A stretch of 45,074 bases of DNA, the filler included, from Jimgerdemannia flammicorona (Eukaryota): NCBI GenBank assembly GCA_003990765.1. It is 2 parts of 2 records of this genome, joined end to end, with 100 filler letters (N's around TTAATTAATTAA, not from the genome) between each part and the next. Parts side by side here need not be neighbours in the genome. Positions count along the whole stretch, not along the records: positions 1 to 22,490 come from RBNJ01001268.1; 1 more part is not named here. One strand, written 5' to 3'. Positions 1,809 to 43,909 of this stretch are shown here, piece after piece (positions within the stretch are counted from its first letter, which is position 1; every line of letters begins with the position of its first letter). The position numbers and the translations under genes are program-made. The notes under the pieces were generated by a model. It was not told where the DNA came from and did not search any database. It saw nothing but the letters and a program-made list of their open reading frames with translations.

Positions 1809-2739
1809 TAGTGCTCCAAACAGATGAAGTTGATCTAGATGAGATTCAATTCAGATTTGTCATATGATAGATTTGAATCAACTCAGATTAGTCTTATAAT
1901 TTGATCCAGATTGATCTGGATTGATCTAGATTGATCCATCTAGATTGATCCATCTAGATTGAAATCTTTAGTGACATCACTCTTTCTTTTGTTCATTTTC
2001 ACTCTTATTTTTTTTTCCTACCATATTTTAGTAATATCACCCTTTCTTTTGTTCTCTCTCTTCTTTTGTTCTTTTTTTATTCTTTTTCTTTATTCTTTTT
2101 TCTTTCCTGCCATATTATGAGCAAACAAAACAGCAGTTCTTAATTATATGTTAATCTAGTCTACTCATTTTTTACCCTGCAATAATCATCAAAAAAGGGA
2201 GTATTCAAAGTGAAAATACACTCTCTACTGATAATATTAGATTCTTTCTCATATGGGCAGCACACAAGCTGCTCATCAAGAGCCAAAGGAGTAATAGTAG
2301 TGGTAATAGTGGTAGCAATAGTAATGGTAGTAGTGATGGTAGAGATGAAGAAGAATTCTGACAACAACTCACAGTAGTCCTTCAGACCTCAGAATTCACA
2401 GACCTCATAGCTATATATATAGCAGCCTTTTTAGAACAGCTGATAGTAGATGTAGATTGCTCACTCTGCTGCTACTTGTTTACTTATGTTTATTTAAATT
2501 TCCCCAATATAACTCAATTCACCTTATGCTTTTTTTAGAGTTTATAGCTCTATGGTGAGATCTGCTGACTTTATTCACAATATCTGGTCAAGCTAAAGAA
2601 AGGCTGGCAGATGTTGCAGGGCATACCTTTGGTGGCTGAGTTGTTGAGTCAATGTATCATATAGCAGAGGTCTCAAAAGGAATAGAAGTAAGCCTTTATG
2701 AGCAATCTTGTATAACTCATATAACTCATGCAATTCATT

Positions 2740-3935: not shown

Positions 3936-4440
3936 AGATACAATATTTCTCTACTTATATATACAGATAATAATATCACTCTGGTAATATTCTATATTCT
4001 GGAAAAGAAGGGCCCAATCTGGGAGGATAGTGACAAAGTCTGGTATAATCTCATCTATGGTTTTGAGGTCTCATTTGTGGCCAATATAATCATCCTATTT
4101 CAACTATACAACCACTATAGTACCATCACCTTTGAGAAGAGCTTGAACATAATAGTCATCATACTTACAACAGATGATAGGCTCATCAAGACCTGGGACT
4201 GATGGGTGGAGTAGTTTTTGTAAGGGTTAGGCAATCTTTTATAAGAGTTTAGCAGTCATTTTGTACAGGTTGGGCTGGCAGCTGAGTACCTCTTCTATAG
4301 TACTAGTTTAGCTGTTATGTCAGGCCCTACTAGCCCCTTGGTCCTACTCTTGTAGTGCTGCTGATGTAATGCTGTGATGTAGGACCAGAGTGCCCATAGG
4401 ACTCAAACTAGTGATGGAGCTCAAATCTGTAGTGGACTTC

Positions 4441-4545
4441 AACTGCCAGAAGTACCCTCTGACTGTCATAAATACTCTCCGACTGCCAGAAGTACCCTCT
4501 GATCACCAGAAGTACCCTCTGACTACCAGAAGCACTCTCTAACCT
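4441..4545. repeat. ~20-bp tandem repeat (ctgccagaagtaccctctga), about 5 copies
   Basis: Seen directly. Confidence 0.8.
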
Positions 4546-4561
4546 GAACTTGGACTCCTTG

Positions 4562-5165
4562 GTGGCTTGGAGCTACCCCTATGCTGTTGGCAGAGGGCCA
4601 CAAATTTTGCACACTCCCTCTACCAACCCTACCAACCCCCGACCTAGACACAGGCTGCTGGGGGGAGCCCTATGCTGTTGGTGCTACAAATTTTGCACAC
4701 TCCCTTCACCTGTCCCATCCATCCCAGACACTTGTGGCTTGGGGCTATCCCTTGCTGCTAGTAGAGAGCTGTAAATTTTGCATGCTCTCTCCACTGATCC
4801 TATACCCACTAATCCTACCAACCAACTCTACTCACTAACCCAGATACTGACAGCTTGGGGCTGCCCCTTGCTATTGGTAGAGGGCTGCAAATTTTGCATA
4901 CTCTCTCCACCTACCCCCCCTCTCTACCAACTCCTCCATCCTGGATACTTATGGCTTAGAGCTACCCCTTACTGCCAGTAGAGGACTATAAATTTTATAT
5001 GTTCTCTCCACTGACCCCACACCCACTGACCCATCCACTAATCTGAATACTGACAGCTTGAAGCACTGATAGCTTAGGGCTGTTCCTTATTGCTAGTGGA
5101 GGACTGCAAATTTTGCATGCTCTCTTTACTATTACCAACCCTACTAACTACTGTACTACTTAGAC
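4562..5165. repeat. Array of ~6 palindromic ~55-bp cores separated by variable C-rich spacers
   Basis: Core ggcttggggctRccccttgctgYtggtagagggctgcaaattttgcatgctctctccac recurs at ~4562, 4652, 4735, 4852, 4951 and 5070. Confidence 0.8.
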
Positions 5166-6673
5166 TGCAAACTCTAGACTGAGTCCTCAGGTTTTTTTTT
5201 CTTTTATTTTTGAAAGATATTAAATATTCCACAAGGTCAACCAACTTATCCATGAACTCCCAGGATCTGCCAAATTTTAGCAGCCTGAGCCTCACCAAGA
5301 CTTCAGATATATATATACTCAGATTATCTCAGTATTCAGTGTATACCTCTTTGGGGCAATAAGGTCTACTCTATCTGAGAACACTCACTCAACAGAAGCA
5401 CTGGAGGCAGAAATTACCAGATAGTCCTGAGTCATACCATATAGGCTGGGGAAGTCTGTTTGATGCAGCTGCACACTTCAGTGGGTAGAGTGGTAGTTAG
5501 ATTGGTGGGTTAAATTGATCCAATACCTGCCTGACAATCCACCTTTTACTAGTTGAGCATCTCTACACTCTCTAGCAGGATTATGTGATCACTGATAAGA
5601 TAAATAGTAAATTCATCTATTGATGGCAGCTCTTTTACTGATAGCTCTCTCTTCTTCTTTCTACTGAAGTAAATATGAGACAGAAGGAATCTCTCAGCAT
5701 ATTCATCTGAACTTCAGCCAGAACCTTGTAGTGGTACATAGTTTTTCCAGTACACTTTGATTATGACCTACTTGGTTCTCTCAATGAAGTGCTGCTCCTA
5801 GCCCTGATCTTTATGGTATTATAGCTTTAAGCATAGGTCCAGCACTGTTTAGAGAAAAGAGAGTGAGTTTTTGCAGAAGTTTCTCTATTTTGGAAGGAGC
5901 AATGACCATATGCTAATACCTGTACTGATTGAGTATATGGCAGTATCTGTTTTGGAGTAGTATTTTCTAAGCTTGCTTAGAGCAACCTCTATTACATCTC
6001 TCTAATCTGGGCTTAACCATAAATCACTATAATCCTTCAGCCTGTCCTTGAGCTTGTCCTCTAGTTGGTCAATCAGAAGGTTGTATACTGATATTGCAGA
6101 GCTTATTGTCAGGGTTATTTATTTGACTATATTCTTTATACAATCATCAAAACACTGGCAGTTATATATAGTGAAGTATTATATTGTACAGAGGTAGATA
6201 AAATAAGTATAGAGCCAGAGCAATCACTACTTACTTCCAAAACTCTGACAACATTCTTAGATATATCTCACTCACTTTCACCTAGAGCCTTGCTCTATAT
6301 TTCCTTATTAGTAGCCACTATTAAATCTATTGGCTTTTTTTATTTTTTATTTTTTTAAAAAAAAAACTTCAATTATCTAAAATAAGTTACTTCAGCCAAC
6401 CAAAGAAAAAAGAATGTATACTACAGCAAACTCCAGCACATGCTGGATCATTACAAATGTTGAGTTCCAACATATACAGATGTTCAATATAAGCTCTTTC
6501 AGGACTAAACTGATTGCTCTACACTACACAGCAAATTTATCTTATCATTGTAGAGATTATTGGACTAATACAACTAGTTTACATAGCTTAGAAATTATAC
6601 TCAGAGTCCCTCCTCTCTCAGATATTTTATCTATATATATAAGATAGTCCTGAATAGTAAGGTTCAGTATGTA

Positions 6674-8743
6674 TGTAAGCACACAACCTCCAAGCTACCG
6701 AAATCACATGTCACCCTCTGAATAAGTCACTGAAATCATATGTGATCTCTGAATAAATCTGGAAATCACCTACTTGATCACGAAGCTGAGTCAAACTGAA
6801 GTCACAGTGCACAAAGCTGAGTCAATATGAAGTCACAGAATACAAGATTCATACAAATGGAATCTTACCAATCAGGACCAAATATATATACCAGACACTG
6901 AGATATATCAAAACAGAGAATCAAAACAAATAACAACCACAACTTCCAAACACACAATATGACCACTGAGATCTACAATTATATCTGCACTGATATTTGG
7001 AATACCATTGTCAATCGAGCCACAGCTCCTCTACCCCTCATGAATATCCATAGCCTAGCACCCCTCTACTTCATGGAAGTCTGATGGAATGCCCTGAACA
7101 TACTTAATGAGGCCTATCGAATCAGACAAATCTCAAGCTACTACCAGATTGGCCGCCTCCTGGAAGACATGGTTGAACACCACCATGATACAGACATTAC
7201 CCAGATGTCTCAATACCAGAAGCTCATTGCTTGCAAATATAGAGAACTCTTCTATAAGTACAGTACCTTTATTTTCTGCCTCTAAGTTACTATCAGTAAA
7301 ATGGTTGCTACTCTGTCCTATGGCCAAATCGATAACATGATATAAGAACTCAACCACAAGTACCTTAAGTATATCCAGACTACAGACAGACCCTTCCCAC
7401 ACCCCAATGACCATATCCTACAAATGCCCCAAGTTGGATATACTATGAAGGATATCTACGATATAATCTGGTTTGATGAAGATAAAGTAGAAGACAATGA
7501 TCCCTTCGACACTAACATGACCCCAAGCCAAGGATCCCTGCCAACACTAATCACACCACCAACCTTGCTGATGAACTTACAACAGTTCATAACCACCTAC
7601 GAGACCTATTAGAACAATGACCACTGGTATGAATACCAATCTGTGTTCACCCCCAATTACTTCAACTACAATAAAGAGACTGGAGAATACAACCTGTACC
7701 TCCAGACAACTCTCGAGATTGAACCAACCACTCCACCACTCAAGTACAAGTGATATGAACTACAGCCACCAGCATACTACAACCCCATGACTCATAGTGC
7801 TGTAATCTATAGAAGGTCACAGATAGCGAATTTAATGAAAGTGAAGATGATGCACCACTCCTTTGCCCCCCAACACCTTATCCAGTATATGAGACAGACA
7901 ATGCTATCCTGTGGGATGGTAATGAAGTTCCAATGTATTACTATCTCAGCGAACAAGGAGAAGTAATCCACGAACTACTCTTCCTAGATAACTACTTCAT
8001 CAGAGATAATACAATTGATGGTGATGTCATCGAAGACTACCCAGACAGTGTCTAAACCTATAAATAGCTTAGCAGTCATAGTATAGTTAGATTAGCCTTA
8101 TACAATATGACTGTGAACTAACTCAGCAGTCAGATGATCTCTTGATATGTCAGATCACTCTTATACTATGTGACTGCATTCCGACTCAGCAAAGGCACTT
8201 AGTACTATATCCATATTTAGTATAGTTCAGATAACCCCTCACTAGTATAAATACCCCCTCCCCTAGACCTCAGAATCTCAGACTTAAAAGACTTGAACAA
8301 TCCAAATACAACTTCTGAGCACTTCTCTATAATATCCCTTTACACAACTACTCCTAGTATAGCAATATCATAAATAGCAAATAAACCTATTTAATAACCC
8401 ACAAATCACTTTTAAGTAAATTTACTCTCTGTTAGGTCCTACTTCTAACCCTATCATGAAATTTCCTAATTGAGTATTGTCTGCAGTAATACACCAATTC
8501 AACTAAGCTGGTCTTAGTTTCTTGAACTTCCTAAAATATGGAAAATCCTGAACATCCAGAACTAGTCCAAGAAAGGACTTTGGTTGAGACATCAATCCAA
8601 TCTTAAAATCAATAAGTATAGAGGACATACTCCATATGAAATTGATCTTGACTATAAGAAAACAGTCTTCCAGAACATCCAGAACTTCCAGAAAACCCTT
8701 CCAGAACTATGTAACGGTTACCCTAAAAAGCAACCCTCTTACA
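6674..8743 (+). mobile_element. 2.07-kb solo LTR
   Basis: Ends tgtaag...cttaca; 5-bp TSD atgta/atata. Removing it restores the transposase motif MQY*TYILNLTIQDYL (decayed RCxAHILNLAVQD). Confidence 0.85.
6959..8055 (+). pseudogene. ~365-codon accessory ORF of unknown function inside the solo LTR
   Basis: ATG at 6959 downstream of a TATA-like tract (~6882). The frame is broken by a few TGA/TAA/TAG codons and one frameshift near 7820, and includes listed ORF 7424..7612. Confidence 0.65.
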
Positions 8744-10009
8744 ATATAGGTCTAGTATTGCATATAGCAGATTTCTATACTAAAGGCCACATTTTCCTAT
8801 TTGAGGCTGACTGCTAAAACTTGGAAAAATGTTGAGTTGTTTGTGGCATTATCTGTTATAATAGTCAAAATATATACTTGAAATATTTGGTCAGCAAATT
8901 TATATAAAAATAAATAACTAATAAAATCTATTTTGTTTTAGAACCTCTTTTAAAATACTAACCTGATGACAAGTCTTCCTTTTTTATCTTGGTTGTGATC
9001 TCAAGCTTCTGGATACAACTAATAAAAGTATCTGCAATATTGTCTCCAGAATAAGGGCCAGCAAGTTTGATAAAGTCAAGAGTGAGAGATTTAAGCTGCC
9101 AATTGAGATCAATTCAATGACCAGTAATGCCTAGAAATTAAATTATATTGGGGAATGTCTATGTGTCAATCATAAATGAAATTTTGCCTACTGAATTCTG
9201 CTTATTGAATGTGAGGTTAAATTGATGAGCTCTTTATAAAAATATATATATAATTTAGCTTGCAAAAGTTATAGTACTACTCTTATTTTATCTAAAGTAT
9301 CTGGTGAAGATTGTTATACTCCTTTCTATAGGTCTCCAGGACATCTTTGCAAATAGTATTGATACTTAGCAAATATAAATCATGCTTGAGGAGGTCAAAG
9401 ATGCTATACAATTGATTACTTTTGATAGTTGTGAATAGCTGGTCTATACATACAATCTAGCAAATAAGTCAATTTCGAAATTCTGCTAAAGAGTATGGCT
9501 AAATATTTTTGATTAAATGAGATTGTTGGTATAGAAATGATCAGGCAATCAGATAAATATACCCACTATAGCTTAGATATTGATTTTATTTATCTTCATA
9601 TTCTTTTTGATTTTGTCAAAGTACTTGTCTTTTATGTATCAATATATGTTTGAAGTCATATCACCAAGCATTTTGAACTTCTAGCTGGTGCAGTTTATAG
9701 AGGTGGATGAAACAGTATCATGTATATATTAAACAAAAGTATTAGTTATATCAATAGATGCATCTTAATTTTTTATCTGCAATAATTACAAACAATATTA
9801 TCTCCTATCTTAGCATAATGTTGCCAGATTTCAAAGTAAGAATTGCATGGAAGGTGTGGAACTATTAGGAATGTTTGACTTGAAGCATCATTAGTACTGT
9901 AAACTGTTGAAGACTAATCTGTCAATATGTGTATTTGCATGTTTGTATATATATATATGTTTATATATATATATTATATATGTGGATATATCTAGCATAT
10001 AAGTCATGT

Positions 10010-10235
10010 GTAGGATTCAAATTGGAGGATTTAGTTGAAGGATTCAGATGAGGATTCAGATTGAAGGATTCAAATTAGAGGATTTGAATTAGAGGATTTA
10101 GATTGAGTAATTCAGATTGAGTAATTCAGATTAAGTAATTCAGATTGAGTAGTTCAGATGGGGTAGTTCAGATGGAGTAATTCAGATAGGTGATTTAAAT
10201 AGAGTAATTCAGATAGAGTAATTCAGATTAATCCA
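10010..10235. repeat. 14-bp subterminal tandem repeats of the hAT element (gagtaattcagatt-like)
   Basis: About 15 degenerate copies just inside the TIR. Confidence 0.8.
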
Positions 10236-10332
10236 AGTTGATTCAGATGGCTTTGGATTTGAGATTTAGATCAAACTATTATGTGATGAATCAAATCTAG
10301 ATTTGATTTGAATTGACTCATTTAGAGTACTA

Positions 10333-11039: not shown

Positions 11040-11963
11040 CTTTGGCAATCTCTTATCTTTTTTTATAATTAGCAATAGAATATAGCCCATTATATCATAT
11101 CACAAATACTGTAATGATAGAGAGTAGATCTTCTGCAAGCTCATCAGCCTTACTGCTATTGGCACTGATGTCAGAATTGAGTACTATAAGTTGAGTCCTA
11201 TTTTTTGCAAAGATCTACTCTATGAGCTCTGATCTGAAACAACACAACTAGTCCTTTCAGATAACTACTACTTCTTTGACCCCTCCTGTATATATATATT
11301 CCAAAAGGGCCATAAAACCCCTGTGTTTCCAGTTGAGCCCTGAACCAATATTACTGACAATCTCATAGCCTGGGAAATGCTGTTGCAGATTAGCAATTTA
11401 TCATTCAAGATCTCACTGTTGGTATTCTGAGCTAACTCTGGCATAGCAGACCTTGACCTTTTTTGTAGTCTGGTTTGTTGGTTGGTTGTCACCAAAAGCT
11501 CTTTACACATTTGTGATAGAGTAGAGTTGTTTGCTACCAGGGGTTCTGACAATGGCAATTTTTTCAGAGATGGCCCACAATCGCAGTATCTCAACTAGTG
11601 CTCCCAACGAATCGAATCGAATCGAAGGCTAATTCGATTCGAGGTCCGATTCGAACCCTATTTTTCGAAATGTAATAACTTGACAAATACACATCTAAAT
11701 TCAATGATCTTTAGCTTGTTAGATTTCTCATATATAGGGGAATTAAACAAGCTAAAAATAATTGAATTTGGACATGTATTCGTCAAGTTATTACATTTCG
11801 AAAAATAGGGTTCGAATCAGACCCTCAATTCGATTCGAATGACCCTCAATTCGATTCGATTCGAATTGATTCGATTCGTTTGGGAGCACTAATCTCAACC
11901 AAGACATCATGTGTCTCTTGTATTTTGCTCGAGCTTGTGTATGTAGTATTGGTTTGAGCCAGG
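11000..11963 (-). pseudogene. tnpA: IS607-family serine recombinase TnpA (N-terminal HTH + catalytic domain), split by a MITE
   Basis: Reads YTSSSKIQETHDVLVE|ILRLWAISEKIAIVRTPGSKQLYS...VCYARVSSEYQQ*DLE**IANLQQHFPGYEIVSNIGSGLNWKHRGF..EVVVI*KD*LCCF..ELAEDLLSIITVFV; the catalytic YARVSS lies at 11428-11445. Confidence 0.92.
11596..11891. mobile_element. 296-bp foldback hAT MITE
   Basis: TIR tagtgctcccaa(a)cgaatcgaatc; perfect 8-bp TSD atctcaac (11588-11595 and 11892-11899); almost the whole element is an inverted repeat. Confidence 0.95.
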
Positions 11964-12189
11964 TGTATTTTTGTAGGATTGTGGAATAATGCGGAGTATT
12001 CACAAAAGGTAATATGCGCGTTTCGCATGTTGCTTTAAAAAAGGTAACGCCACTAAATGTATATACGGTCTTGTGCGTTGATATATATTAATAAGATGAA
12101 TTGTGTGGTTTATTCCGGAATGTTCGAAAATGATTCAACGGTCCATGGACCCAACATTCCCCAGAACCTCACTCACTACTCGATCCCCC

Positions 12190-13193
12190 TTACAAAACCC
12201 TAAACCTAATCGCCACCACCGGGGGTAACTTGGTCATATCCTTCCAACTTGGTGTTAAATTCTTTTCCTCGCCCTCTTCTCTATTCCATGCCGCTTCCTC
12301 AAACCCGTCCACAACAAATCCGGCCCCGAACGCGATGTTGAAGATGTCATGCAGGCTGCGCGGGAAGTACCAGTGCGCATGGGCCTGTCCCGGAATGCCG
12401 ATGCCCTTGACAGGGCGTGCGCCGAGGTATTCATGCGCCTTGATGTAGGTGCGCTTGACGGTCTCGCCGTTGGGTAAGTCAAACTGCTCTACCCCACGCA
12501 CGGAGTCCGGGTGGTTAAAGGCCGGATGCATCAGCGTCGCGATGAACTGCGCGCCTGGGTTGAGGAGCGTGCGGAGGGCACGGAAAAGAGGGGTGATGTC
12601 GGAGATGTCCATAATGGCTGGATAAACAGGTGCATGTCAGCATTGCGTTCGTTCACCAGGTCTGCTCCTGCATATGTATTAGCCCCAAGGGGTACTCACC
12701 CATATTCGATAGAGCCTTGTCGAATCCCTTCTTTCCACTCCGTGGCATTAATTCCCTCACCATAGCCTGCTCATCCGTCGCATCCAACACCAAAAACTCA
12801 ATTTTATCCTCATACCCCTCATTCCTCTTCCTGGCCTCATCCACAAACACTTTGCTATAATCGAATGCCACGACGCTCTCAGCCCCAAGATCAATTATCC
12901 GGCGCGCGAAGAGCCTACGTATATACATCCTTACGTTCAATCAGATCGGCATCGCAGAGAGATAATTAATAAGATATTAAGGCTCACACATACCCTGACC
13001 CGCACGACACCTCGAGTACGTGCTCTCCGCCCTTCAGCGCCAGCAGCCGCTCCGCCGCGGGCGCGACCAGCACTCGGTGGAAGTCGTTGCCCTCAGCGCC
13101 GAAGTGCTCGATCCAGAAATGGGCGTTAAGGTTCCAGATGTCACGGGATTCGGCGTGTCTGTCTGGCTCGGTGGTGGTGGCGGGTTGAAACAT
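12190..13193 (-). CDS. Class I SAM-dependent methyltransferase, 3 exons (13193-12994, 12914-12700, 12617-12190)
   Basis: Motif I VLEVSCGSGLFAR is rebuilt across a GT-AG intron; also VVAFDYS, LDAT, FDKALSNMAIMD, LNPGAQF..HPAF. Confidence 0.88.
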
Positions 13194-13647
13194 GGTGATG
13201 TGCGGCCCAGGAATTGTAATTTATATATATGAGATGAAATTTTTCAAATCCAGATAACGTTTTTTAATAAACTTCGCCTCAATATATATATGGTTTTCAA
13301 GGATGCCGCAGTCATCATGTCACGTGAGACGACAACTACGCCGCTGAGTTCCCGTGCACTTTTCCCACGCAAAACCCTGCTGCGGCACCCGGGGATTTGG
13401 GGTTTGGTGTAGAGACGGCGGATGAGACCGAGTTTATTTTTGCGTGTGCGTCACAGTGTGGAAAGGGAATTTAGTGCTCGTCCGCAAATGTCTGCGTATC
13501 GAATGAACGAACGCTGGAGTTTGGAGATTGTAATGACGCGAGGGTGTGCAAGATGTGGGGATGTCAAGAAACTCCGGAAAATTTAATGCACATACCACGA
13601 ACCTAACTCACTCGGCCATTTTACCACTTTATTCCCGAAAACAATGC

Positions 13648-15691
13648 TCATCTTTTCCCCACCTCGACGCCGACAACCCTCTTTCCCTGGGCCTTGATAT
13701 TCCTTGCCTTGGTCACCATCACCCTCGCGACCTTCTCAAGATCACCCGACGTCATCAGTTCGACACGATCCCCCCAGGGTGGGTGGTCTCCGATATCGCT
13801 GAACGGGTCGGTCTCGCGTCCGTCAGACGTGACAACTGCGGCGCGTGGGCGCGAGGTGGAGAAGCGTAGGTGGCGCGTGAGGCCGCGGTCGTGCAGCCAG
13901 CGGTGGAAGTGGGAAAGAGTCCCCTTGCAGCGGGAGGTGAAGAGCGTGTAGGTCGGTTTACTGGGACGGGAGGAAAGGGAGGGAGGAAAGGGAGGCGAAT
14001 GAGATTGGGTAGGGGGGTATGATGCTTGTAAAGGTGAGATCAAGTATTGACGCCACCACCACCCTCCTTCAAAAAAAAAAATAAAAAAAAAGGCCCATGA
14101 CAACCCACCCCGTCGCCACCGCCTCCGTCGTCCCGACTTCCTGATCCGCAGTAACGACAATGCGGGACGCGACGGCCAGCGCAGCTTCATACACGCGATC
14201 GTCTACGTCCACCCGGGCGTCGTGCAGGTGGATGTCACCGCGGTGTGAGTCGGGTATTACGGACGCGACGCGGTCTGTCAGGACTTTACGGATCTACAAT
14301 GCAGGAAAGGGAATTGTGGTCAATAGAGAGGAGTTGTATGTGCGAAGGAAAGTGGGGGTGAGGGGACTTACGTGATCGGGAAGTTGGGCTGAGCAGAGAA
14401 GGAGGACTCTGGCATTGTGGGTCTCGATCATCCTCTGTTTCAGAGAGTTGTGGATGTTTATTGGAGAGAATAAATGAATGGAGCAATATGCGAAACCTGG
14501 TCAACGTCCCACGTCAATCCAATTCCCCAAAACAAATGCACCTCCCTCCGTTCCGCAACACCGCCACGAAATACAACCTTACACTGATCCACGACTTTCT
14601 TGGCGTCATCGCTGTACCACCGACACTGCTTCGTCGACCTGCCGACGAGCACGGTTACGATTGGGTCGAGGCTTGGGTCAGCCGACGCGAACGGCTCGGG
14701 GAGCATGCTCGTATCGATGGAGGCGAGGCGCGCTGGGGTGGTGGGGGTTAGGGGCATCTAGCCACCAGATCGGACGAGGAGCGTTTGGGTTGAATGCATT
14801 GTGCGTGGATCAAATAAAGAGACATGGGAGACAAGGAGAATCTTTTACCAGTGTACTGATGTAGTTATTTTGATCTGTCACCCGCGGGCCGGTAGGCGCT
14901 ATATTGAGGTTTAGAACGGCAGAAAAGGGGGTGTCAGGAACGGGGCATGCGATAGTCCATACGATTGCTTTAGTGGGAGGTACGCACCTAGTTTCTTGGC
15001 CGAATCGATTTTTGCCAGTACGACTTGGTCGAAGTGGACGAATGAGAGGTTGGGAAAGCGAAGGTAAACTGCATATGATGTCGGTTCAGGGTGAATTTTT
15101 TTTTTTTTTTGGAGGGGGGGGGGTAAGGGAGAGGGTTAACGAGGCTAATTATTTTAGGTACAATTTCAAAAATTAAAAAAAAATTGTTTACCCGTGAACG
15201 ACTGTCCTCCACTCCGTTTCCCGACCTCGAGGCACGGAGCAATCGCCGTATCACCCGAGGCGATGACAAATTCCGGGTACGGTCCCGCAAGCGGGTCAGC
15301 GGAGGGCGAGGAGAGGTACCACGGCAAACGAGTGGCGGGACGCTTCGTGACGTAGGCGAAATCGATGATGTATTTCTGGATGTGGACGGGTAGCCAGTTG
15401 ATGGCTGTAAAAGATGGTCGATGAGGAGTAGAAATAATGTGCCAATCACATGTAATAGGCAAGATAGCAATAAGAACCTTTAGAGGGATATACAGGTTTG
15501 AGCTCATAAGGCAGCTTCAGGGCTTCGGCGAGGGCGATAGATTGCCGTCGGGCGGCTCGGGTGCCGTCGATGAAGATCCAGGTGGAGGGGGTGGTAGGTG
15601 GTTTGGAGGGGGGTGAGGATGCGTAGGGGCGGAACAGAGTATGATGTCTCGCGAGAGGTGGGTGTCTGCAGCGGAGTGGAGAGAGCAGCAT
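13648..15691 (-). CDS. ELM1: Mitochondrial fission ELM1-family protein, multi-exon (internal exon limits not fully resolved)
   Basis: Arg-rich presequence-like N-terminus; WIFIDG..ARRQSIALAEALKLPY; PEFVIASG; FDQVV; VTVLVG; YEAALAVASRIVVTADQ..EAVATG|KPTY..CKGTLSHFHRWLHDRG, matching ELM1 family motifs. Confidence 0.78.
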
Positions 15692-16029
15692 GAGTGCAAG
15701 TATGGTGGGATGGGATGGGGTGGCGTGTCTGGTGCAAAAAGGAAATGGATGACGTCACGCAATAGTTGCTGCGTGACGCGGAGTGACGCGGGGTGACCAG
15801 TTGTGACTGGGAAGTGTTTACCGAACATGTCATTGGATTTGGTAAAAAAAAATGGGAATGCTTTGTAACCTTATTTTAACCCTTCAGACTTTTCTAATCT
15901 ACATAAGACAAATTTGTTATTAATTTAGACCCCCTTCTTCTCAGACCCCTTCAGACCTCCTTCAGACCCTCCTTCAGACCCTCCTTCAATATATTAATAT
16001 ATACCCCGTCGCCACACACACTACCAGCC
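15692..16029. promoter_or_regulatory. Short bidirectional promoter region between ELM1 and ArgRS
   Basis: The starts are head-to-head, ~340 bp apart; the region contains tgacgtca, repeated gtgacgcg and tandem ccttcagacc repeats (15940-15988). Confidence 0.5.
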
Positions 16030-18696
16030 ATGAATCTCTCTTTCAATCCTCGCCACCCCCCTTACGCTGAGGTCGCCGTACTCATTAAAACCTCCGGCCC
16101 CAATGCCCTCAAAACTCTCAGACTGACTCCCGTCGCAGACCACCCAACCACCACCCTCACCCCCGCCGCCGCCGCCGCCGCCAAAAATCCCGCCAAGCTC
16201 ACAGGCTCCGTTGCCGTCCTCCGCTATCTCGCTCGCCTCGCCCCCCACCCCTCCCCCCTCTACGACGAGCATACTCTAACCTCGCACCGCCATACCTCCG
16301 AAACCGACTCTCTTCTTGACCTTCTCCGCCAGCACCCTTTCACCACCCACCACCTCGCCACCCTTACCCAAACAGTTCACGCCCGCCACCCGCAATTTCT
16401 CGTCGACCACGCAAAGCTCCTCCTGGCGGACTACGCTGCGTGGGGCTTCCTCCGCGTGCACCCGAGTAAGGATACCGCCACGTGGGTCGCAAAGATGGAC
16501 GCACTGCCCGAGTGTGCCGAAGCCGTGCGCGTGGTTGACGCCGCCATCGCCGCACCGCCGTTACAGACCCCGTCCGTTGTCGAAGTCAAGGAGATCCCGC
16601 GAATCTCCGGAACGAACCCGGACGAGAACGTGTTGGACGCATTCAGAAATCTGATTGCCGACCAGATCGCCAGGCTGGCGGGGTCCGATCCGGTGTTCGT
16701 AACCTCATTGATTGAGGCACCACGCACACCGGACCACGGTGATTTTGCTATTGCCGTGCCGAGGATGAGGGTCAAGGGCAATCCGGCGGTGTTGGCGAAG
16801 GAGTACACCGAAAAGGTATGCTCCATTGTAACATCCTTTCCTTTATTATCCAACGTCTCTGGTACTCTTTCCGTGTCATTTATCTCATAACCGTCCACTC
16901 ATCGTTATACCCTTCCAGTTCATCCCGAACCAATACATCCTCTCCGCCAGCTCAATCGGCCCCTTCATGAACTTCAAGATCTCGCACTCGTTGCTGAACC
17001 GTCTGCTGCTTGCGCTGATCTCGTCACAGAAAGAGGCCTTCGGTACCAACACTTCGGGTGCCGGTAAAACCGTCGTTGTTGAGTACAGTTCACCAAACAT
17101 CGCGAAACCCTTCCACGCGGGGCACCTCAGGAGCACCATTATCGGAAACTTCATTAACAATGTGCATGTCGCAAACGGGTGGAAGACCATCACTATGAAT
17201 TATCTGGGGGATTGGGGGAAGCAGTATGGTGGGGGTTTTTTTTTTTTTTTTTTTTGGCCGATAGGAGGATGGGATGGATGAAGGTTATTTGGTCATCCTA
17301 GCTGTGTTATTATATATGTATAAATGCATAGATTGGAGGGAGGCTGCCTAATTCCGACGATATATGAATTTGCGCTAACCGATGGCTCCTCAAAACATTC
17401 ATAGGTTTGTTAGCGGTTGGTTATAACAAGTATGGCAAGGAGGATGAGCTCGAAAAGGACCCGACCAAACATCTGTACGATGTGTACGTCCAGATCAACG
17501 TGAGTTTTATCTTCTTGAGACGGAAACAAAAGCCTGTCCATGCTATGGTTCGTCCGTATGCATGATTCTAATCAATATATTGTTCCCTCTCACAGGCAGA
17601 CGCCGAAGCGGATCCGACTATCCACGATGCGGCCCGCGCCTACTTTAAACAGATGGAAGATGGCGACGAGGTGGCATTAGCATTATGGCGCAAGTTCCGC
17701 GACATCTCTATTATCAAGTACCAGTCGACGTACGCGCGTCTCAACGTCAAATTCGACATCTACTCTGGCGAGTCGCAGGTGGCGAAACCGATGGCTCGCG
17801 CGCTGGCGCTACTCAAGGAGAAGAACTTGGTCAAGGACTCCGAGGGAGCGCTCATCATGGACCTGAACGAGCACAAGCTTGGCACAACCGTGATCCAGAA
17901 GCAGGACGGCGCGGCGTTGTACATGACACGCGACATCGGGGCCGCGATGGAGCGTTACGAGAAGTTCCAGTTCGACTCTATGATCTATGTTGTGGCGTCG
18001 CAACAGGACCTGCATCTCAAGCAGCTGTTCAAGATCCTGGAGCTGATGGGGTTCGACTGGGCGGCCAAGTGCACGCACATCAATTTCGGGCTGGTGTCAG
18101 GCATGTCAACACGCAAGGGCACGGCGGTGTTCCTTGAGCAGATTCTGGAGGAGACCAAGACGGCAATGCACGAGGTGATGCAGAAGAACGAAAAAAAGTA
18201 CGCACAGATTGAGGACCCGGACACCGTCGCCGACATCATTGGAATTTCCGCCGTCAAGGTCCAGGACATGGCTGCCCGCCGTATCCGCAATTACGACTTC
18301 GACTGGAACCGCATGTTCAGCTTCGAGGGCGACACGGGACCTTATCTGCAGTATGCGCACGCCCGTCTCTGCTCCATCGAGCGTAACTCCGCCATACCCA
18401 TCAACCCCGACGCGGACGTCGCGCTGCTGACCGAGCCAGCGGCTGAGGAGCTGATCACCATGATCGCGCAGTACCCGGACCTTGTCAAGGCGCTGCCAGC
18501 GTCGCCCGAGCCCTGCAACGTCGTCACATACGCGTTCAAGCTTAGCCATATCGTGTCCATCGCACTCGAGGGGCTATGGGTCATGGGGCAGGAGAAGAAG
18601 TTGGCCGAGGCGAGGTTGCTCATGTATTGGGCTGCTAGGATCACGCTAGGAAATGCCATGAGGTTGATTGGGTTGACACCGCTGGAAAGGATGTGA
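16030..18696 (+). CDS. RRS1: Arginyl-tRNA synthetase with an N-terminal GST-like extension; exons 16030-16815, 16919-17228, 17405-17499, 17596-18696
   Basis: VVVEYSSPNIAKPFHAGHLRSTIIG (HIGH-like), NYLGDWGKQYG, GMSTRKG, GDTGPYLQYAHARL and C-terminal LTPLERM; GT-AG introns keep the frame. Confidence 0.96.
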
Positions 18697-22490: not shown

Positions 22491-22590
22491 NNNNNNNNNN
22501 NNNNNNNNNNNNNNNNNNNNNNNNNNNNNNNNNNTTAATTAATTAANNNNNNNNNNNNNNNNNNNNNNNNNNNNNNNNNNNNNNNNNNNN
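22491..22590. other. Artificial contig-joining linker
   Basis: 44 N + TTAATTAATTAA (stops in all six frames) + 44 N, exactly 100 bp, between segments of 22490 and 22484 bp. Confidence 0.92.
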
Positions 22591-25500
22591 AATCCCCCTA
22601 GGGGGGCCCCTCTTCCCTACCTCTTCTTGATGAAACACTATGCTATCAAACACCATTACCACCCATCCACCACTCTGTGTGCAGATCCCTTCTACCAGAC
22701 AGCGACATTGCCCACTGTGTGGTCCCCATCCAACCCACCACCCCATCAGCAGATCTGCCACTAACTCCTCCCATCTCAACAACTTCTCCCATATCTCTAT
22801 CTGCTGTTCCTCCTTAAAAACAAAGAGCCAATATCCCACCAACCCCACTCACACTGCAATGACCCACCCTACAGTAAGCCATCTATTGCCAACACCTTCC
22901 ACAAGTCGAGATTCCAGATCCTCCCAACAACCCTGCTCTCCATCTGGTCTCCTTTCAACCCCTAGCCAGTCCCCAACAGCTATCCAAAAGTCCCCCAGCA
23001 CCTCATGCATCTGTCCTTAGAAACATGGACCCAAACTTGAAGTTCACAGTTACTACAGATACATCTAACTTTGCCATTGGTGCAGTCATTTCTCAAGATG
23101 ATGGTCAAGGACACTGACCTATTGCCTTTGAGTTAAGAAAATTGTCTCCAGCAGAACAAAAGCTGGCTACTTATGAAAAGGAACTCCTGGCAATTATGCA
23201 TGTCCTCAAGACTTAGCAATACTACCTAGAAGAAGTTGAGTTTGATATGATCACTGATCACAAGTCCCTTCAGTACATCAACACTTAACTAACTCTTTCT
23301 CGCCAACAAGCCAAGTGGAGTCAACTACTTCAGGCCTTTACTCCAAACATCATCTATAAGTCTGGTAAAACTCTAGTTGTACCAGATGTACTTTCAAGAA
23401 GATCTGACCTTGCTGCAATTTTACAAGTCACTATGACACCTGAATTCCTCAATCAGATCAAGAAGGCATATGAACAAGACTCTCTGGTTCTACAAAAGAA
23501 TACCAAGGAATTCAAGGAAAAATACACCATCAAGGACAACCTCATGTACTATCAAGACAAAGTATATATTTCTGCCAACCCTGAACTATGGTATAAGATT
23601 CTTTGTGAACATAATGACTCCCTACTAGCTGGTTACCTTGGAACTGAGAAGACTGTCAAGAATATCCAATGAGACTACTACTGGCCAAACATGCTCAAGG
23701 AAATCAAGGAGTATGTCCAAAGCTGCAATCTTTGTCAAAGAAATAAGTCAAGCAACCAAGCATCCACTGGTCTTCTACAACTCTTGCCAATTCTAACCAA
23801 GAAGTTTGAATAAGTCACAATGGACTTCATTGTGCAACTCCCATGAACCAAAACAGGCTATAATATTATTGTTGTATTTGTGGACCATTTCACCAAGATT
23901 ACAATCGCCAAGCCAATCACAACCAATGCCACTACCCCAGAAATTGCCAGAATCTTCAAGACTGTCTTCCACCATTATGGACTTCCCTGAGTAATTATCA
24001 GTGACTGTGACTCCAAGTTCACAAGCCACTTCTGGTAAGCACTCTTTAAGACCCTTGGAACCCAAATTGCTATATCTACTGCCTTCTACCCTCAAACTGA
24101 TGGACAGACTGAGAAAATTAACAGAATACTTGAACAAATGCTCAGAAACTATGTGTCTTATGAGCAAGATAATTGAGACCACTATCTGACCTATGCTGAG
24201 TTCACCTACAATAATGCCATCCAATCATCAACTGGCCTTTCTCCATTTCAGCTACTTCATGGTCAAAACCCCAAGACCCCTACAAGCCTAGTCTCATTCC
24301 AGCAATCCAGTCACACACAAGTTTCCACAGTCCAGAACCTTATTGACAAAATGGATTCTCTCCTCATGATTACCACTACAAACCTGCAAAGGCTCAGCAA
24401 TATCAAGCTAAGTATGCAGACAAGAAGTGGTAAGATGTCATATACAACATTGGTGATATGGTTTTACTCAAAGCTGACAATATCAAGGCTCAATCTCAAG
24501 TCAATCGCCAGTCAGCCAAATTCCAGCCCAAGTACCTTAGACCCTTTGAGATCACCAAGCAAGTCTCCACCTGGTCTTACTGTCTCAACTTGCCAACAAC
24601 CATGTGTATATACCCAGTATTCCATATGTTACAACTCAAGGCCTGGAACCAGTCACCTCTATATCCTGGCCGAATTCTGACACTATCAGCACTAGTGATA
24701 GTTGAAGACCACATTGAGTATGAAGTTGAGAAAATCTTGGACAAATGAGTCTGGTACTATCACACAGAATACCTAGTCAAGTGGATGGGTTATCTTGAAT
24801 ATGATGCCACCTGGGAACCTGCCACCAATCTCAGGAACTCCCAAGACCTCATCTAAGAGTTTGAGCAAAAGGAACTCATTGACTGCCCATGAGGTTCTCC
24901 TCTTGGATAGTAGATGATATACTGTGTTGATTAGGTACATTAAGCATCAGGGTACTCTAAAGAATACTGTATCAGAAATAAGAGATATAGGAGAACTCTA
25001 TAAATCTTACAACCAATGAGGTTTGAATCAGTTCTTATCTGATCAAGATGATACTTTGGCCCTCATCTTATACAAGAATGGCCAGTCTTTGCCAATGAGC
25101 CAACATATTTTATTTGAAGTTTCTTTTAGTCTTATTGTTTATTATATATAACTTTGAGAATTCAATGAGGATATTGATTCTTAAGGAAGGAGAGATATAA
25201 CATTTTAGCATAGTTTATTTCTTTTCTTTGTCTTTTCTCAATATTCTACAATCTTCCAATACTTTCCAAACACTTAGAAATCCTTTCTTAGTGCTGAGCA
25301 TCCACTAGTACTTATTTAGCTAGTTACTGAATATTCTGGAAACTTGTAGAACTTTATTCATCATTATTTGTCATTCTTGCTGAGAACTTTCCTCTTGGCA
25401 TTTTCCTTTGATTTCTCAGATCCTTCCAGATCCTTCTTTCAGATCTTATATAAATATCCCCTTTGTTCTTATGAATAAAGCCTCAGAATATTTTCTTCCA

Positions 25501-25609
25501 GAAATCCTTCAAGAATACTTGAACCTTTAAGTATCTCTCTGAGCTACTTTAGACTAATCAGAACTTCCAGATTTAGTTACTTCCTCTTAAAGAAACTAGA
25601 ACCATTATA
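22591..25609 (+). mobile_element. Decayed Ty3/Gypsy chromovirus-like element: RT, RNase H, integrase, chromodomain, PPT and 3' LTR (~25196-25609)
   Basis: VTTDTSNFAIGAVISQ; YEKELLAI; ITDHKSL; integrase HHCC-like region and YPQTDGQTE; chromodomain EYEVEKILD..EYLVKWMGY..ATWEP; polypurine aaggaaggagaga at 25183-25195. Confidence 0.88.
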
Positions 25610-25739: not shown

Positions 25740-27112
25740 TATAATGATGCAAATTACACAGTATAAGAAGATATAACTTATGAAAGCTTAGAAGTTCAAG
25801 TAAATAGAATGTTTCAGAGATAAATCACCTATTCAGAAGGAAGTTATAATAGTTGATCTAAATTAGAAATATGAATTAAAAGAATAAACATTTGGTCATG
25901 GTACCTAAATCTAATTCCCAAATATAGTATAGCCTTATAAATAGTAGTTATTTCACAAATGTTAAAGTTTTGACAAATATTAACATTTTTACTAATGTTA
26001 AAATTTCACAGATATTAAAGATTTAACAAATATCAAAGATTAATACTTGTGAAAAGTGACTCACAGAAAACATAGTTATAACTAGCTACCTTATAGCTAG
26101 CAAACTTATATAAATATCCCCAGTATCTAGAGTAAATAAATCTCAGATTAAAATAGTTCAAAGCAAAGAAAAAGTAAAAGAACTAGTAAGCCTATAGATA
26201 GATATACTTTGAACTCACTTACTTCTACATCTTAAGGATACCATAGAGTCAAAGAAGATCAAGTTTTCAAAATACAGAAATCTGACATACTTATACAGTT
26301 ATATATTTACTATATTATAATAATTAAATTATTAATTTATAATTATAATAAACTAATAAACTCTTAATATTTAAAATATATTATTACTATTATAATTATT
26401 TTTAAATTAATATATTTTTGATAAAATATAATTAATATATTTTATTAATTTACTAATAGTTATTAATTAAACTATTATTAGTTTATTAGTATTATTAAAA
26501 TATTTAATAAATAATAATTTAATAATATTTATATATTATAATATAGTAGACATATAACTGTATAAGTATATCAGATTTCTGTATCTTGAAAACTTGATCT
26601 TCTTGATTCTGCATAGTTCTCAGAATGTAGAGATGGGTGAGTTCAAAGTATATCTATCTGTAGACTTATTAGTTCTCTTACTTTCTCTTTACTTTGAACC
26701 ATTTTGATCTGAGGTTTATTCATTCTAGATACTGAAATATTTATATAAGTTTGCTAGCTATAAGATGGCTAAGTTATGACTATATTTTCTATGAGTCATT
26801 TTCTATAAGTATAGATTCTCTATATCTGTGAAATCTCTATAATTGTAAAAATTCTATATCTGTAAATTTCTATATTTATAAAGTTTCTATATTTGTAAAA
26901 ATATGACTACTATTTATAAGGCTATACTATATTTGGAAATTAGATTCAGATATCATAATCAAATGTCTTTTCCTTTAATTCATATTCCTAATTTAGATCA
27001 ACTATCACAACTTTCTTCTAAATAGATAATTTATCTCTAAAACATCCTATTCACTCAAACTCTCAAGCCTTTATAAGCTGTATCTCCTTGTACTGTACAA
27101 TCTATACTATCA
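25740..27112. repeat. ~1.37-kb foldback: two ~580-bp inverted LTR-like arms around a nearly pure A/T centre
   Basis: 25740-26320 matches the reverse complement of 26535-27112 (e.g. aatacagaaatctgacatacttatacagttata / tataactgtataagtatatcagatttctgtatc). Confidence 0.88.
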
Positions 27113-35100: not shown

Positions 35101-35548
35101 CACTTATATAGGACTAGAACACTTATATTGAGTCAGAAATACCTACCATAAATAGTTTTCTATAATTAGCAACATATTAATCTGATAGTAACCATAACTG
35201 TACAAAATACTCTAGAGATAAGAGTGAATAAATCTTAGTCCAAAATTAAATCTAAAGCAAAATATAAGTCTGCCTACCACACTTTGAAAAGAACTCTATA
35301 ACTATTGCTAAAAGATTGTAAGCTTTGCCATTTCTACTCTAGTCCACTTTTTGATATAAAGAATAAGTCTATTTTTGATCTGCTTATTAGACAAGTCTGA
35401 ATAATTTGAGTAAATCCACTGCTCAAAGAAGAGCTGCCATTTTTAAGAAGAAGTCTACTATTCCTAGAGAGCCTATTATTCTTGCTATAAGTTAGTCTAT
35501 CTGATGCAACTTCACAGTAGAACTAGTCTATAATATAACCCTATATAA
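32119..35548 (+). mobile_element. Heavily decayed Ty3/Gypsy 3' half: RT, RNase H, integrase, accessory ORF, 3' LTR from ~34870
   Basis: LCIDYRKLN, DLFTGFHEI, VYIDDSNIYS, FILYTDTS, ITNYIALKWLF, EYLTKWPKA, YYPQTNGMTE; purine-rich tract before tataac at 34870. Confidence 0.82.
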
Positions 35549-37077
35549 TGTAATGGTGACCCCAGAATGATGACATTAGTACAGGAGACAGCTTTTCCTT
35601 ACAAGCCACTGGATAGGAGCATAAGAAGATTATATGGCATACGAGATGAGCAATGATGACCAACTGTAAGTCATTGTGACCACAGCATAAGTATTCTGAA
35701 GAATATAAAAGAAGGATCAAGGAACTACAGTAGCAGAACTAACAAGAACCACTAATCCCAAAATAGCTCAAAGACTTACCACAAATGAAATGCCTGCTGC
35801 CTGCCAAACCTCAAGATCAAGGAATCACCAAGGTATCTCAGTCAAGGAAAGGATGTTCCAAGACATCAGAAGAGCCATGGGGACCTGCTCAAGAAGGACT
35901 CCTAGTGTCAACCTGGGTACTGCAGACCCTTATCACTTTATTCTCTACTGCCATGAAATGGAAGCAAGGATCACCATTGCTACTGAATGCCTCTAAATAT
36001 GGCAGGAGTATAAAATAGGAAACCTTCTCTGCCAGGAGTTCCCACAGGCCAGCACTCAAGAGCTACAAGATACCACTTCCATAGATATATGTGAAATGAG
36101 GATAGCTAAGAATATCCATCAGATCTTCAGACATACACCATGGTCGATCCCCAACTTGGAGTATGTTAGAGTCTCAGACTTCAGAGACCTGTCATCCCGT
36201 CATATCAATGTACTAGAAGCCAGGGTGGCTACAGAAGCCCAGTCTGCTATCACCCTCAACAGCAAGGAAGTAGAAGACTTCTGATACCCCATCCTTCAGG
36301 ACAACCCAGACCAATTCCTGCAAGGATTGATCTCAGTATTCCAAGGCCCAAGCATCTAGGTTAGATCTCTCCAAGACTCCACATTTGTTCCTTATTTTAT
36401 AGAAGAGAACCTCATAGACTGGAGAGCTCCAGACCTTGTTCCTGATCTCCCCACCACAGCCAAATGTGATGATGTCATTGGCAATGACATCATCCCATGT
36501 GATATATATGAAATGCATGACCTGCATGATAAATTCGCAGATCTCATCTCCTTCAGTGATGATGATAATGAAGCCCCCATGATTCTGAACTTTCTGCTCT
36601 AAGTTCTTTATTACACTAGATAATGCCAGTACCAGTATTCTCATATAACACTGGATAATGCCAGCACTGGTATTCTGAGGTGATGTGAAATTGTTCCAGT
36701 ACCGGCATTTTGATGTGACACTAAATAATGCCAGCATCCTGAACCTGTACAACTATCAGTACCAACCCTAGAACTTAGTATTTTTAGTTATTGAAATTTA
36801 TATTTAGCTTTATATCTTAGCAACTATTGAATTATATTTTGTATAAATACTCCTCTTATTTTCTTTGAAATAAAGTCAGTTTTTTTCAGTACAATATATA
36901 TACTTCCTTGCAAGCAATCTAAGAGATAACAAGACAGTTTAAAGATAAGAAGTTTGAGGACTATAAGACCTTGAGAAGGCACTCCAATAAGAACTTGCTT
37001 ATAACAAACTTGAGTTAGTCTAAGAGATATACCTTGAAGAGAATCTGGCATATTTGAAGGACTCAGTGACCACTACA
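35549..37077 (+). repeat. 5' LTR (~1.53 kb)
   Basis: tgtaatggtgac...gtgaccactaca imperfect terminal inverted repeat, followed by a PBS-like tgacaacttg (probably decayed TGG...). Confidence 0.85.
35790..36602 (+). pseudogene. 270-codon ORF of unknown function inside the 5' LTR
   Basis: Its two stops (35994, 36282) are sense codons (CAA, TGG) in the 3' LTR copy. Confidence 0.8.
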
Positions 37078-37138
37078 TGACAACTTGATGCCCATTGGCT
37101 GGTGATTCAAAATGAATCCCTCACTTTTAAGCTGAAAA

Positions 37139-42440: not shown

Positions 42441-42773
42441 TTCTAGTCTGCAAATCATAACAGCATGTCCCATGACCAGCAGACTATCTGTCTAGACCAT
42501 TCTCTAAGGGATGCAGTACTGGCAACTTCTCATCCATGAGACTTTTGAAGTTAGAGGAGTTTGAACCATCAATTGATTGGTCAAGATCAGAATCAGGCCC
42601 TTGCTCTATATGAAGGGAGTGACTCTTCACCATTATGCCAAAATATAAAGGAAAGATGCCAGCTCATAAACACCACTTTTTGATCCCTTGCCAGAGGTTA
42701 TGGGATTAGCAAATTTTTCAGGACTGGACCAATGAATAAGAATGCTCAGAAAGATCCTTATTCAGGAGGAAGA

Positions 42774-43909
42774 TATAATGGTGACCCCAGAATGATGACA
42801 TCAGCACAGGAGATAGCTTTTCCTTACAAGCCACCAGATCGGAGCACAAGAAGATTATATGGTATACAAGATGAGCAACGATGACTAACTATGAGTCATT
42901 GTGACTATAGCACAAGCATCCTGAAGAATATAAAAGAAGGATCAAGGAACTACAGTAGTAGAACCAACAAGAACCACCAATCCCAAAATAGCTCAAAGAC
43001 TTACCACAAATGAAATGCCTGCTGCCTGCCAAACCTCAAGGTTAAGGAATTACCAAGGTATCTCAGTTGAGGAAAGAATATTCCAAGATATCAGAAGAGC
43101 CATGAGGATCTGCTCAAGAAGGACTCCTAGTGTCAACCTGGGTACTGCAGACCCTTATCACTTCATTCTCTACTGCTGTGAAATGGAAACAAGGATCACC
43201 ATTACTACCAAATGTCTCCAAATGTAGCAGGAGTACAAAATAAGAAATCTCCTCTGCCAGGAGTTCTCACAGGCCAGCACCCAAGAGCTACAAGATGTCA
43301 CTCTCATGGATATATGCAAAATGAGGATAGCTAAGAAGATCCATCAGATCTTCAGGCATACACTATGGTCAATCCCCAACTTGGAGTATGTTAGAGTCTC
43401 AGACTTCAGAGATCTATCATCCCACTGTATCAATGTACTAGAAGCCAGAGTGGCTACAGAAGTCCAGTCTGCTATTACCCTCAACAGTGAGGAAGTAGAA
43501 GACTTCTGGCACCCCATCCTTCAGGACAATCCAGACCAATTCCTGCAAGGATTGATCTCAGTATTCCAAGGCCCAAGCATCCAAGTTAGATCTCCCCAAG
43601 ACCCCATATTTGTTCCTTATTTTGTAGAAGAGAACCTCATAGACTGGAGAGCTCCAGACCTTGTTCCCAATCTCCCCGCCATAGCTGAATATGATGACAT
43701 CATTGGCAATGACATCATCCTGCATGATATATGCAAAATGCGTGACCTGTATGACAAATTCACAGATCTCATCTTCTTCAGTGATGATGATGATAAAGCC
43801 TCTATGATCCTGAACTTTCTGCTCTAAGTTCTTTATTACACTAGATAATGCCAGCACCAGTATTCTCATATAACACTGGATAATGCTAGTACTAGTATTC
43901 TGAGGTAAT
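42774..43909 (+). repeat. 3' LTR, interrupted at ~43909 by a younger repeat
   Basis: Colinear with 35549-36684; similarity stops abruptly after tattctgaggt. Confidence 0.92.
43015..43827 (+). pseudogene. 270-codon ORF inside the 3' LTR
   Basis: A single internal TAG (43225) that is TGG in the 5' LTR copy. Confidence 0.82.

Follow-up and report, generated by a model that had tools for sequence, protein, structure and literature searches.

Evidence for a decayed orphan gene in a solo long terminal repeat of Jimgerdemannia flammicorona, without detectable kinship to the frame in the repeats of a second element

Introduction

Solo long terminal repeats (LTRs) usually outnumber all other remains of LTR elements. 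Textbooks know of protein genes within LTRs for a few retroviruses only, among them mouse mammary tumor virus (MMTV) with its sag gene. A block of DNA from Jimgerdemannia flammicorona raises the question of whether a solo LTR of a retrotransposon in a fungus-like host can carry a protein gene of its own and, if so, whether that gene has kin in the LTRs of other elements. The block occupies positions 6674-8743 of a stretch of 45,074 nucleotides (the window), which joins two parts of assembly GCA_003990765.1, the first of them (positions 1 to 22,490) from RBNJ01001268.1. An earlier note on this DNA had read the block as a solo LTR containing a gene, and had proposed that the gene is homologous to an open reading frame (ORF) starting at 35790 and 43015 in the two LTRs of another element, at 35549-43909. 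On balance, and with moderate confidence, we favor a different account: the block is a solo LTR with a decayed orphan gene in its U3 region, and this gene is not detectably kin to the 35790/43015 ORF.

Results

Limits and copy number of the solo LTR

The limits of the block can be read from DNA outside the window. Contigs of three soil-metagenome DNA runs from one study (X1, X2 and X3), which contain shares of 0.12, 0.05 and 0.00 of sampled window words, were mapped to positions 6000-9500 at an identity of at least 80%. Three contigs (one from X1 and two from X2) represent the empty site: they run from 6669 or 6672 to 8755-8767 without the block, with 7-22 letters in between. Those letters are the uninterrupted target, from which the window departs solely by C>T or G>A. 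A 5-bp word that is single in the empty site stands on both sides of the block in the window, and its ancestral form is ACGTG (for the present forms see Table 1). The three joints and the target-site duplication, obtained independently of the earlier note, give exactly the limits that it had drawn.

Relatives of the block are abundant in the same runs. Mapping recovered 3235 related pieces from X1, 448 from X2 and 33 from X3, spanning the block and both flanks; in X1 and X2 all 30 bins were covered. Both the block and the DNA around it are therefore repeated families of a soil organism. Two contigs from X3 reach into the block from its left side and share a flank other than that of the window; 20 of the last 21 letters of this flank, directly before 6674, are purines. 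Agreement of these contigs is 0.78, and the tract, which abuts 6674, is known from loose ends only. A search of the window for this string, which resembles a polypurine tract (PPT), gave a single match with three mismatches (2055-2074, minus strand) and no LTR start behind it. Because of the target duplication, the empty sites, the purine tract before other copies and the multi-copy relatives, a solo LTR of a multi-copy LTR retrotransposon family is by far the best reading of the block, and to this extent the earlier note was right.

We regard it as highly improbable that the block is a complete small mobile element of a non-LTR kind that makes 5-bp duplications. This would agree with the fact that neither a full-length element nor a primer-binding-site flank was seen, and with the single copy in the window, where no second copy of 6674-8743 was found within the 45 kb. 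However, the block starts with TGTAAG at 6674 and ends with CTTACA at 8743, termini of the TG..CA type whose inverted match extends over 6 bp only; no internal terminal repeats were found between them, and a Pfam scan of the block found no transposase, reverse transcriptase (RT) or other protein domain. Moreover, a purine-rich tract common to two contigs and abutting the 5' end fits a 3' LTR behind a PPT and would be surprising at insertion sites that arose separately.

The flanking DNA of the solo LTR, too, occurs in many copies in the soil metagenomes. The repeat that it interrupts contains a match to a hAT-family dimerisation domain (5295-5468, minus strand, E 4e-6).

A broken reading frame and its one intact relative

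Inside the solo LTR lies a sense frame of ~365 codons (6959-8055) that is interrupted by five stops and one frameshift. The peptide strings quoted in the earlier note recur in frame 1 from 6959 and in frame 3 of the repeats beginning at 35548 and 42773, with ORF starts at 35790 and 43015. Its statement that the LTR carries its own gene holds in part: there is an LTR-borne ORF with an intact relative that has the same stop, but in the window it is not one ORF, being broken by the five stops and by the frameshift near 7816.

The relative, P0004, was the only one returned by a word-indexed search of 5.8 billion proteins. It is an intact protein of 247 amino acids on a contig of 998 nt, three quarters of which is taken up by the open frame of 247 codons. 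Over residues 115-275 of the solo-LTR frame it shows 63% identity and 80% similarity; it runs on across the window frameshift and shares the stop codon position with the window frame, and its tblastn matches in the window are at 7301-7816 and 7816-8052 (E 8e-80). Related metagenome contigs carry one extra base behind 7818, which explains the frameshift. No relative beyond P0004 was found when the word-indexed search of the 5.8 billion proteins was repeated with P0004 as query, or in an exhaustive HMMER search of 1.84 billion cluster representatives. Searches for DNA loci of relatives matched 25 and 307 pattern stretches in JGI metagenome contigs and 1 and 332 stretches in viral contigs, with none confirmed in either collection.

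Comparison with P0004 makes it possible to separate the decay of the window copy from divergence of the protein. The window stops at 7343 and 7610 correspond to Q and W in P0004, each separated from a stop by a single C>T or G>A transition, and one metagenome loose end has CAA at the position of the 7283 stop; no such single change leads from P0004 to the stop at 7751. Of the 97 residue differences between the two copies, 32 can be explained by C>T/G>A mutation in the window copy and at least 65 cannot. The two copies have therefore truly diverged while the P0004 lineage kept the frame. With the ORF divided into three parts, its frame contains 2, 3 and 0 stops, and the other five frames 2-15. 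P0004 has nothing that corresponds to the N-terminal 114 codons; there the ORF frame contains 2 stops and the others contain 3-11.

These data bear on the alternative that the frame is not an element gene, and is either a captured host piece carried passively or a stretch open by chance or through cis-acting constraint on U3. Just one intact relative, no predicted fold for the product and an N-terminal third scarcely more open than two other frames are what such an origin would lead one to expect, and we nevertheless think it quite unlikely. P0004 has kept a frame of 247 codons over most of its contig, with the same stop codon at 63% identity, and at least 65 differences accumulated in lineages that diverged with the frame kept. 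In addition, the 35790/43015 ORF retains both start and stop across copies of just 48-80% identity, which shows that ORFs in this position can persist. We conclude from these sequence comparisons that the solo-LTR family appears to have carried a real protein gene, and that the window copy is a pseudogene. That the ORF had its full ~365 codons, the N-terminal part included, is likely but weakly supported.

The element at 35549-43909 and its LTR ORF

The second element is, to judge from its coding content, a decayed Ty3/gypsy element, because its LTRs (at 35549 and 42774) flank CCHC-gag, protease, dUTPase, RT, RNase H and integrase. Protease (38585-38905) is followed by dUTPase (39320-39706) and RT (40058-40546). 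The terminal repeats (35548-36684 and 42773-43909) share 90% identity, and a purine tract (42764-42773) directly precedes the 3' LTR.

The ORF in these LTRs comprises 270 codons, and the stops of the two copies are at different places. It has 16 relatives in metagenome protein sets, seven at 56-77% identity and nine further cluster members. Several share their first residues and an end reading ...LNFLL, and two are forms of 323 amino acids that are ~50% identical to the window copy. The LTRs of this element do carry an ORF, as the earlier note had it, and this ORF is conserved among 16 relatives, several of them with common start and end. By sequence comparison the ORF is a separate, well-conserved orphan family, better conserved than the solo-LTR ORF. 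An Atlas feature search with P0013 returned one unnamed cluster of 61 members at 0.91, which may be P0013's own cluster.

The 3' LTR of this element is possibly truncated at 43909, and the right-hand one of two inverted copies of a ~1.16-kb repeat (9-1173 and 43915-45074, 79% identity) abuts the 3' LTR end. A fragment at 32003-35545 (plus strand) with RT (32321-32719) and RNase H (32909-33295) reaches the 5' LTR and looks nested.

The two LTR ORFs are not detectably homologous

The homology proposed by the earlier note was based on a gap-free pattern of ~38 residues, and none of the comparisons lent it support. In BLASTP searches of the solo-LTR frame against two copies of the other ORF, the best E values were 11 (P0002) and 0.014 (P0003); the latter match consists of 15 residues in another register, and the register of the note was never recovered. 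A hidden Markov model (HMM) of the 35790/43015 family gave negative bit scores against the six solo-LTR frames (best E 0.15, for six sequences), and tblastn with six proteins from both families against the window found no cross match at E up to 10. The hhalign comparison, which the note itself had singled out as able to overturn the homology if not significant, returned a probability of 0.74% and E 0.077 over 47 columns. A transition-tolerant DNA alignment scored 241, against 221 (sd 26) for shuffles.

In the 38-residue alignment 8 positions are identical, and the BLOSUM62 score is 0. Every one of 300 shuffles holds a 38-residue window that is as good or better, and the best real window scores 22, against a shuffle mean of 21.3 (sd 5.6). 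The apparent motif match is therefore at the level of chance, and the two ORFs are best kept as separate families.

A single, diverged family of LTR-encoded accessory proteins that covers both ORFs nonetheless has several parallels to commend it. Both ORFs lie on the sense strand, start 241-285 nt into the LTR and finish before its 3' part; both products are acidic (isoelectric point, pI, 4.05 and 4.5-4.6), with net charges of -16 to -27 in the C-terminal thirds, which agrees with the acidic C-termini of the earlier note, and neither has a Pfam match. The one alignment made by hhalign couples the YxIGxLL motifs of the two ORFs, at distances of 62 and 74 residues from the start codons. Set against the failure of every sequence comparison above, at the level of protein, profile and DNA, these parallels leave common descent distinctly improbable. 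The solo-LTR ORF resembles the 35790/43015 ORF in position, orientation, acidic tail and orphan status, and differs from that family in having neither the basic, Arg-rich N-terminus nor the ...LNFLL end, and no detectable sequence kinship. Since no homology is detectable, the shared layout is most simply a parallel arrangement and not the result of common descent.

Properties of the encoded proteins

Neither LTR ORF product matched Pfam, and searches of PDB sequences with both gave nothing below E 0.44. P0004 has a pI of 4.05, with 46 D+E residues against 10 K+R. Members of the 35790/43015 family have pI values of 4.5-4.6; their first third is roughly neutral and Arg-rich at the start, and the tail has a net charge of -16 to -27. 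The highest Kyte-Doolittle mean over 19 residues is 1.49 for P0001 and 0.97 for P0004, and neither family rises above 1.5, the usual cut-off for a membrane segment being 1.6.

Structure prediction was of low confidence throughout. AlphaFold2 gave a predicted local distance difference test score (pLDDT) of 32.6 for the solo-LTR product and 39.8 for the 35790/43015 family, values too low for fold searches; the model of the latter has helices to about residue 185 and disorder thereafter. An ESM Atlas model of the solo-LTR product has a pLDDT of 0.39, and its structure neighbors in the Atlas all have template-modeling (TM) scores of 0.30 or less. From these models and from composition, the solo-LTR product is predicted to be an orphan acidic protein (pI ~4), largely disordered and without a transmembrane segment. 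Clusters of bulky hydrophobic residues among D/E in its middle and tail resemble, as we take it, acidic activation domains.

Promoter-like signals

The sense orientation of the ORF and its position inside the LTR are directly visible; the U3/R limit is a guess from the TATA-like runs. According to the earlier note both LTRs share one layout, with a TATA box, the ORF and a second TATA box. This describes the solo LTR, where TATA-like runs lie on both sides of the ORF (Table 1), but is doubtful for the LTRs of the second element, where the clear second run, at ~36841, lies past the end of the repeat at 36684. Beyond 36684 a unit of ~70 nt is repeated, and the run at ~36841 reads TATAAATA. TGAGTCA sites in the 31-nt repeats were considered as a further signal and rejected, there being no enrichment in the window (12 found, 9.3 expected).

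Table 1. Features of the solo LTR and of the LTRs of the element at 35549-43909
Feature	Position	Strand	Basis
Left copy of 5-bp target-site duplication, now ATGTA	6669..6673	.	Empty-site contigs against window, by eye
Solo LTR, 2070 bp, termini TGTAAG...CTTACA	6674..8743	+	Sequence; three skipping joints; purine-rich loose ends
Tandem 31-nt duplication, 84% identity, upstream of first TATA-like run; possibly enhancer-like	6779..6840	+	Repeat search
First TATA-like run (TATATATA), 69 nt upstream of ATG; putative promoter	6883..6890	+	Sequence
LTR-borne ORF, first frame, ~286 codons; stops at 7082, 7283, 7343, 7610 and 7751	6959..7816	+	Translation; comparison with P0004
ORF continuation past one-base frameshift near 7816-7818; stop-free, TAA at 8053-8055	7813..8055	+	P0004 alignment; metagenome contigs
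Two 43-nt repeats, spacing 63 nt, upstream of second TATA-like run	8086..8191	+	Repeat search
Second TATA-like run (TATAAATA), downstream of ORF; putative function	8246..8253	+	Sequence
AATAAA, candidate polyadenylation signal	8380..8385	+	Sequence
Right copy of target-site duplication, now ATATA	8744..8748	.	Sequence and empty-site contigs
5' LTR of Ty3/gypsy element; ORF 35790-36602 with 3 stops	~35549..36684 (repeat from 35548)	+	Self-comparison, translation
3' LTR of same element; ORF 43015-43827 with 1 stop, 199 codons open	~42774..43909 (repeat from 42773)	+	Self-comparison, translation

Discussion

The history that we favor for the solo LTR would run as follows. An LTR retrotransposon would have inserted into an older repeat, with duplication of 5 bp of the target; recombination between its LTRs would have removed the internal part and left a solo LTR, which C>T and G>A mutation then eroded. 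While the element was active, a sense gene of ~365 codons in U3 would have been copied into both LTRs at every round of reverse transcription, because, in sense and inside the LTR, it would lie downstream of the polypurine tract. Its mRNA may have been initiated at the first TATA-like run, with the 31-nt tandem repeat upstream, and have ended at the AATAAA at 8380, and genomic RNA may have been initiated at the second TATA-like run. The protein would then have acted in trans for the element. A nuclear regulator with a tail of the acidic activation type is a tentative and rather doubtful suggestion for the product; a silencing antagonist or an assembly cofactor are further conjectures.

Several points weigh against this reading. 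The two promoters, the poly(A) site and the limits of U3, R and U5 are guesses from sequence. Neither a primer-binding-site flank behind 8743 nor a full-length element was found among the contigs, of which the best-supported loose ends were listed. The single intact relative is on a contig of 998 nt, so that the placement of its ORF in an LTR is presumed; predicted-protein databases, besides, hold only open frames, a bias that accounts in part for the discovery of an intact copy. For the N-terminal 114 codons, where the motifs cited in the earlier note lie, the decayed window copy is the sole source, and with 2 stops they differ little from two other frames, which have 3 and 4. As to the separateness of the two families, the single hhalign alignment does pair the YxIGxLL motifs, and the solo-LTR profile in that comparison was a single broken sequence; remote homology for this reason keeps a small probability.

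Protein genes in U3 have a precedent among retroviruses. A passage in PMC9412291 describes a second U3 promoter in the MMTV LTR that is able to drive the U3 ORF. The solo-LTR ORF is like sag/naf of MMTV in lying in sense inside the LTR, presumably in U3, and hence in both LTRs, and the two TATA-like runs of the solo LTR, one either side of the ORF, recall the second U3 promoter of MMTV; by analogy, the gene would be a U3 accessory gene placed as sag is in MMTV. The differences are considerable. MMTV is a vertebrate betaretrovirus, whereas the element here is apparently a Ty3/gypsy-type retrotransposon of a fungus-like host. MMTV Sag is a type II membrane glycoprotein, whereas the solo-LTR product has no segment reaching a hydropathy of 1.6, and no similarity was found in Pfam, PDB or protein searches.

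Going by excerpted descriptions, the nearest analogue among retrotransposons is Cassandra, a terminal-repeat retrotransposon in miniature (TRIM) of plants that has a 5S rRNA-like gene in its LTRs. There, as is presumed here, the LTR holds an independent transcription unit that every copy inherits. Unlike the ~365-codon protein ORF of the solo LTR, the unit in Cassandra is an RNA gene of pol III, in a non-autonomous plant element.

Additional genes are also on record for fungal elements. In the relevant passages of PMC2864245, the basidiomycete element PosPlaTy3-5 has a dUTPase between protease (PR) and RT, an order (PR-dUTPase-RT) that the element at 35549-43909 shares, and a figure legend for PosPlaTy3 names an 'add. 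ORF' of unknown function. BcGypsy1 (Boty) carries brtn, according to a passage in PMC8365987. Unlike the ORFs reported here, these extras are not described as inside LTRs in the passages concerned (PMC2864245, PMC8365987). No description of an LTR-borne protein ORF in a fungal or other LTR retrotransposon was found by phrase searches of ~8.4 million full texts apart from MMTV, although Table S1 of PMC2864245, which lay outside the search, may record one.

If such genes are expressed, solo LTRs are more than promoters, each being a dispersed copy of a gene, and a family could go on providing an accessory protein in trans when the internal parts of its members were long gone. Two unrelated orphan proteins at the same LTR position suggest a recurrent solution, and offer a handle on what elements need beyond gag-pol. 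A far-reaching generalization would be that Ty3/gypsy-type elements in this fungus-like lineage have repeatedly placed unrelated orphan genes in U3, with at least two families in this one 45-kb window; that promoter-like modules of their own make each LTR, solo LTRs included, a free-standing gene; and that the products are acidic trans factors, such as LTR activators or antagonists of host silencing, which serve all copies. We offer it as speculation, and would rather expect it to fail than to hold.

Mutation background and other features of the window

The decay seen in the solo LTR has its counterpart in other repeats of the window. Of the 111 mismatches between the LTRs at 35549 and 42774, 109 are transitions. 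The ratio of observed to expected CpG is 0-0.22 in most repeats, 0.53 in the GC-rich segment 43915-45074 and 1.06 in the gene block at 12-19 kb, and (CpA+TpG)/(ApC+GpT) in repeats is 1.17-1.57. Classical repeat-induced point mutation (RIP; CpA>TpA, of the Pezizomycotina) was rejected since this last ratio is not low by the thresholds in general use. Because CpG is depleted, transitions predominate and the ratio is not lowered, CpG-directed C>T decay of methylated repeats fits better than classical RIP.

Rfam and tRNA scans of the whole window gave 0 matches each. GC skew is negative in some blocks (-0.40 at 22-23 kb) and positive in others (+0.56 at 28-29 kb). Between 27000 and 32000 lies a 5-kb block whose plus strand is G-rich and C-poor, with no Pfam match in its three minus-strand frames; it is preceded by a palindrome-like inverted repeat of 1.3 kb (25758-27096). 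Within 22491-25600, a run of N at 22491-22590 (88 in the window) is followed by a chromovirus fragment with RNase H (23028-23339), integrase (23580-24083), a Tf2-type SH3 domain (24452-24643) and a chromodomain (24719-24871). Together with the hAT remains, the compact arginyl-tRNA synthetase gene described below and the occurrence in soil, the Ty3/gypsy chromovirus remains point to a host that is probably a fungus.

Tandem repeats at 10050-10245 and 4437-5155 comprise a 14-nt satellite in ~10 copies and several families with units of 20 nt to 116 nt. A match to a serine recombinase (Resolvase N-terminal domain; 11113-11451, minus strand, E 2.6e-6) in a read-through frame adjoins a 118-nt inverted repeat (11608-11863). 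Such a match is unusual in a eukaryotic genome and might mark an IS607-like or other element. Host genes form a block at 12001-18696, with an Elm1-like minus-strand match inside 12001-15900 and a compact arginyl-tRNA synthetase gene on the plus strand, whose N-terminal domain falls in 15907-16890 and whose catalytic and DALR domains fall in 17572-18696.

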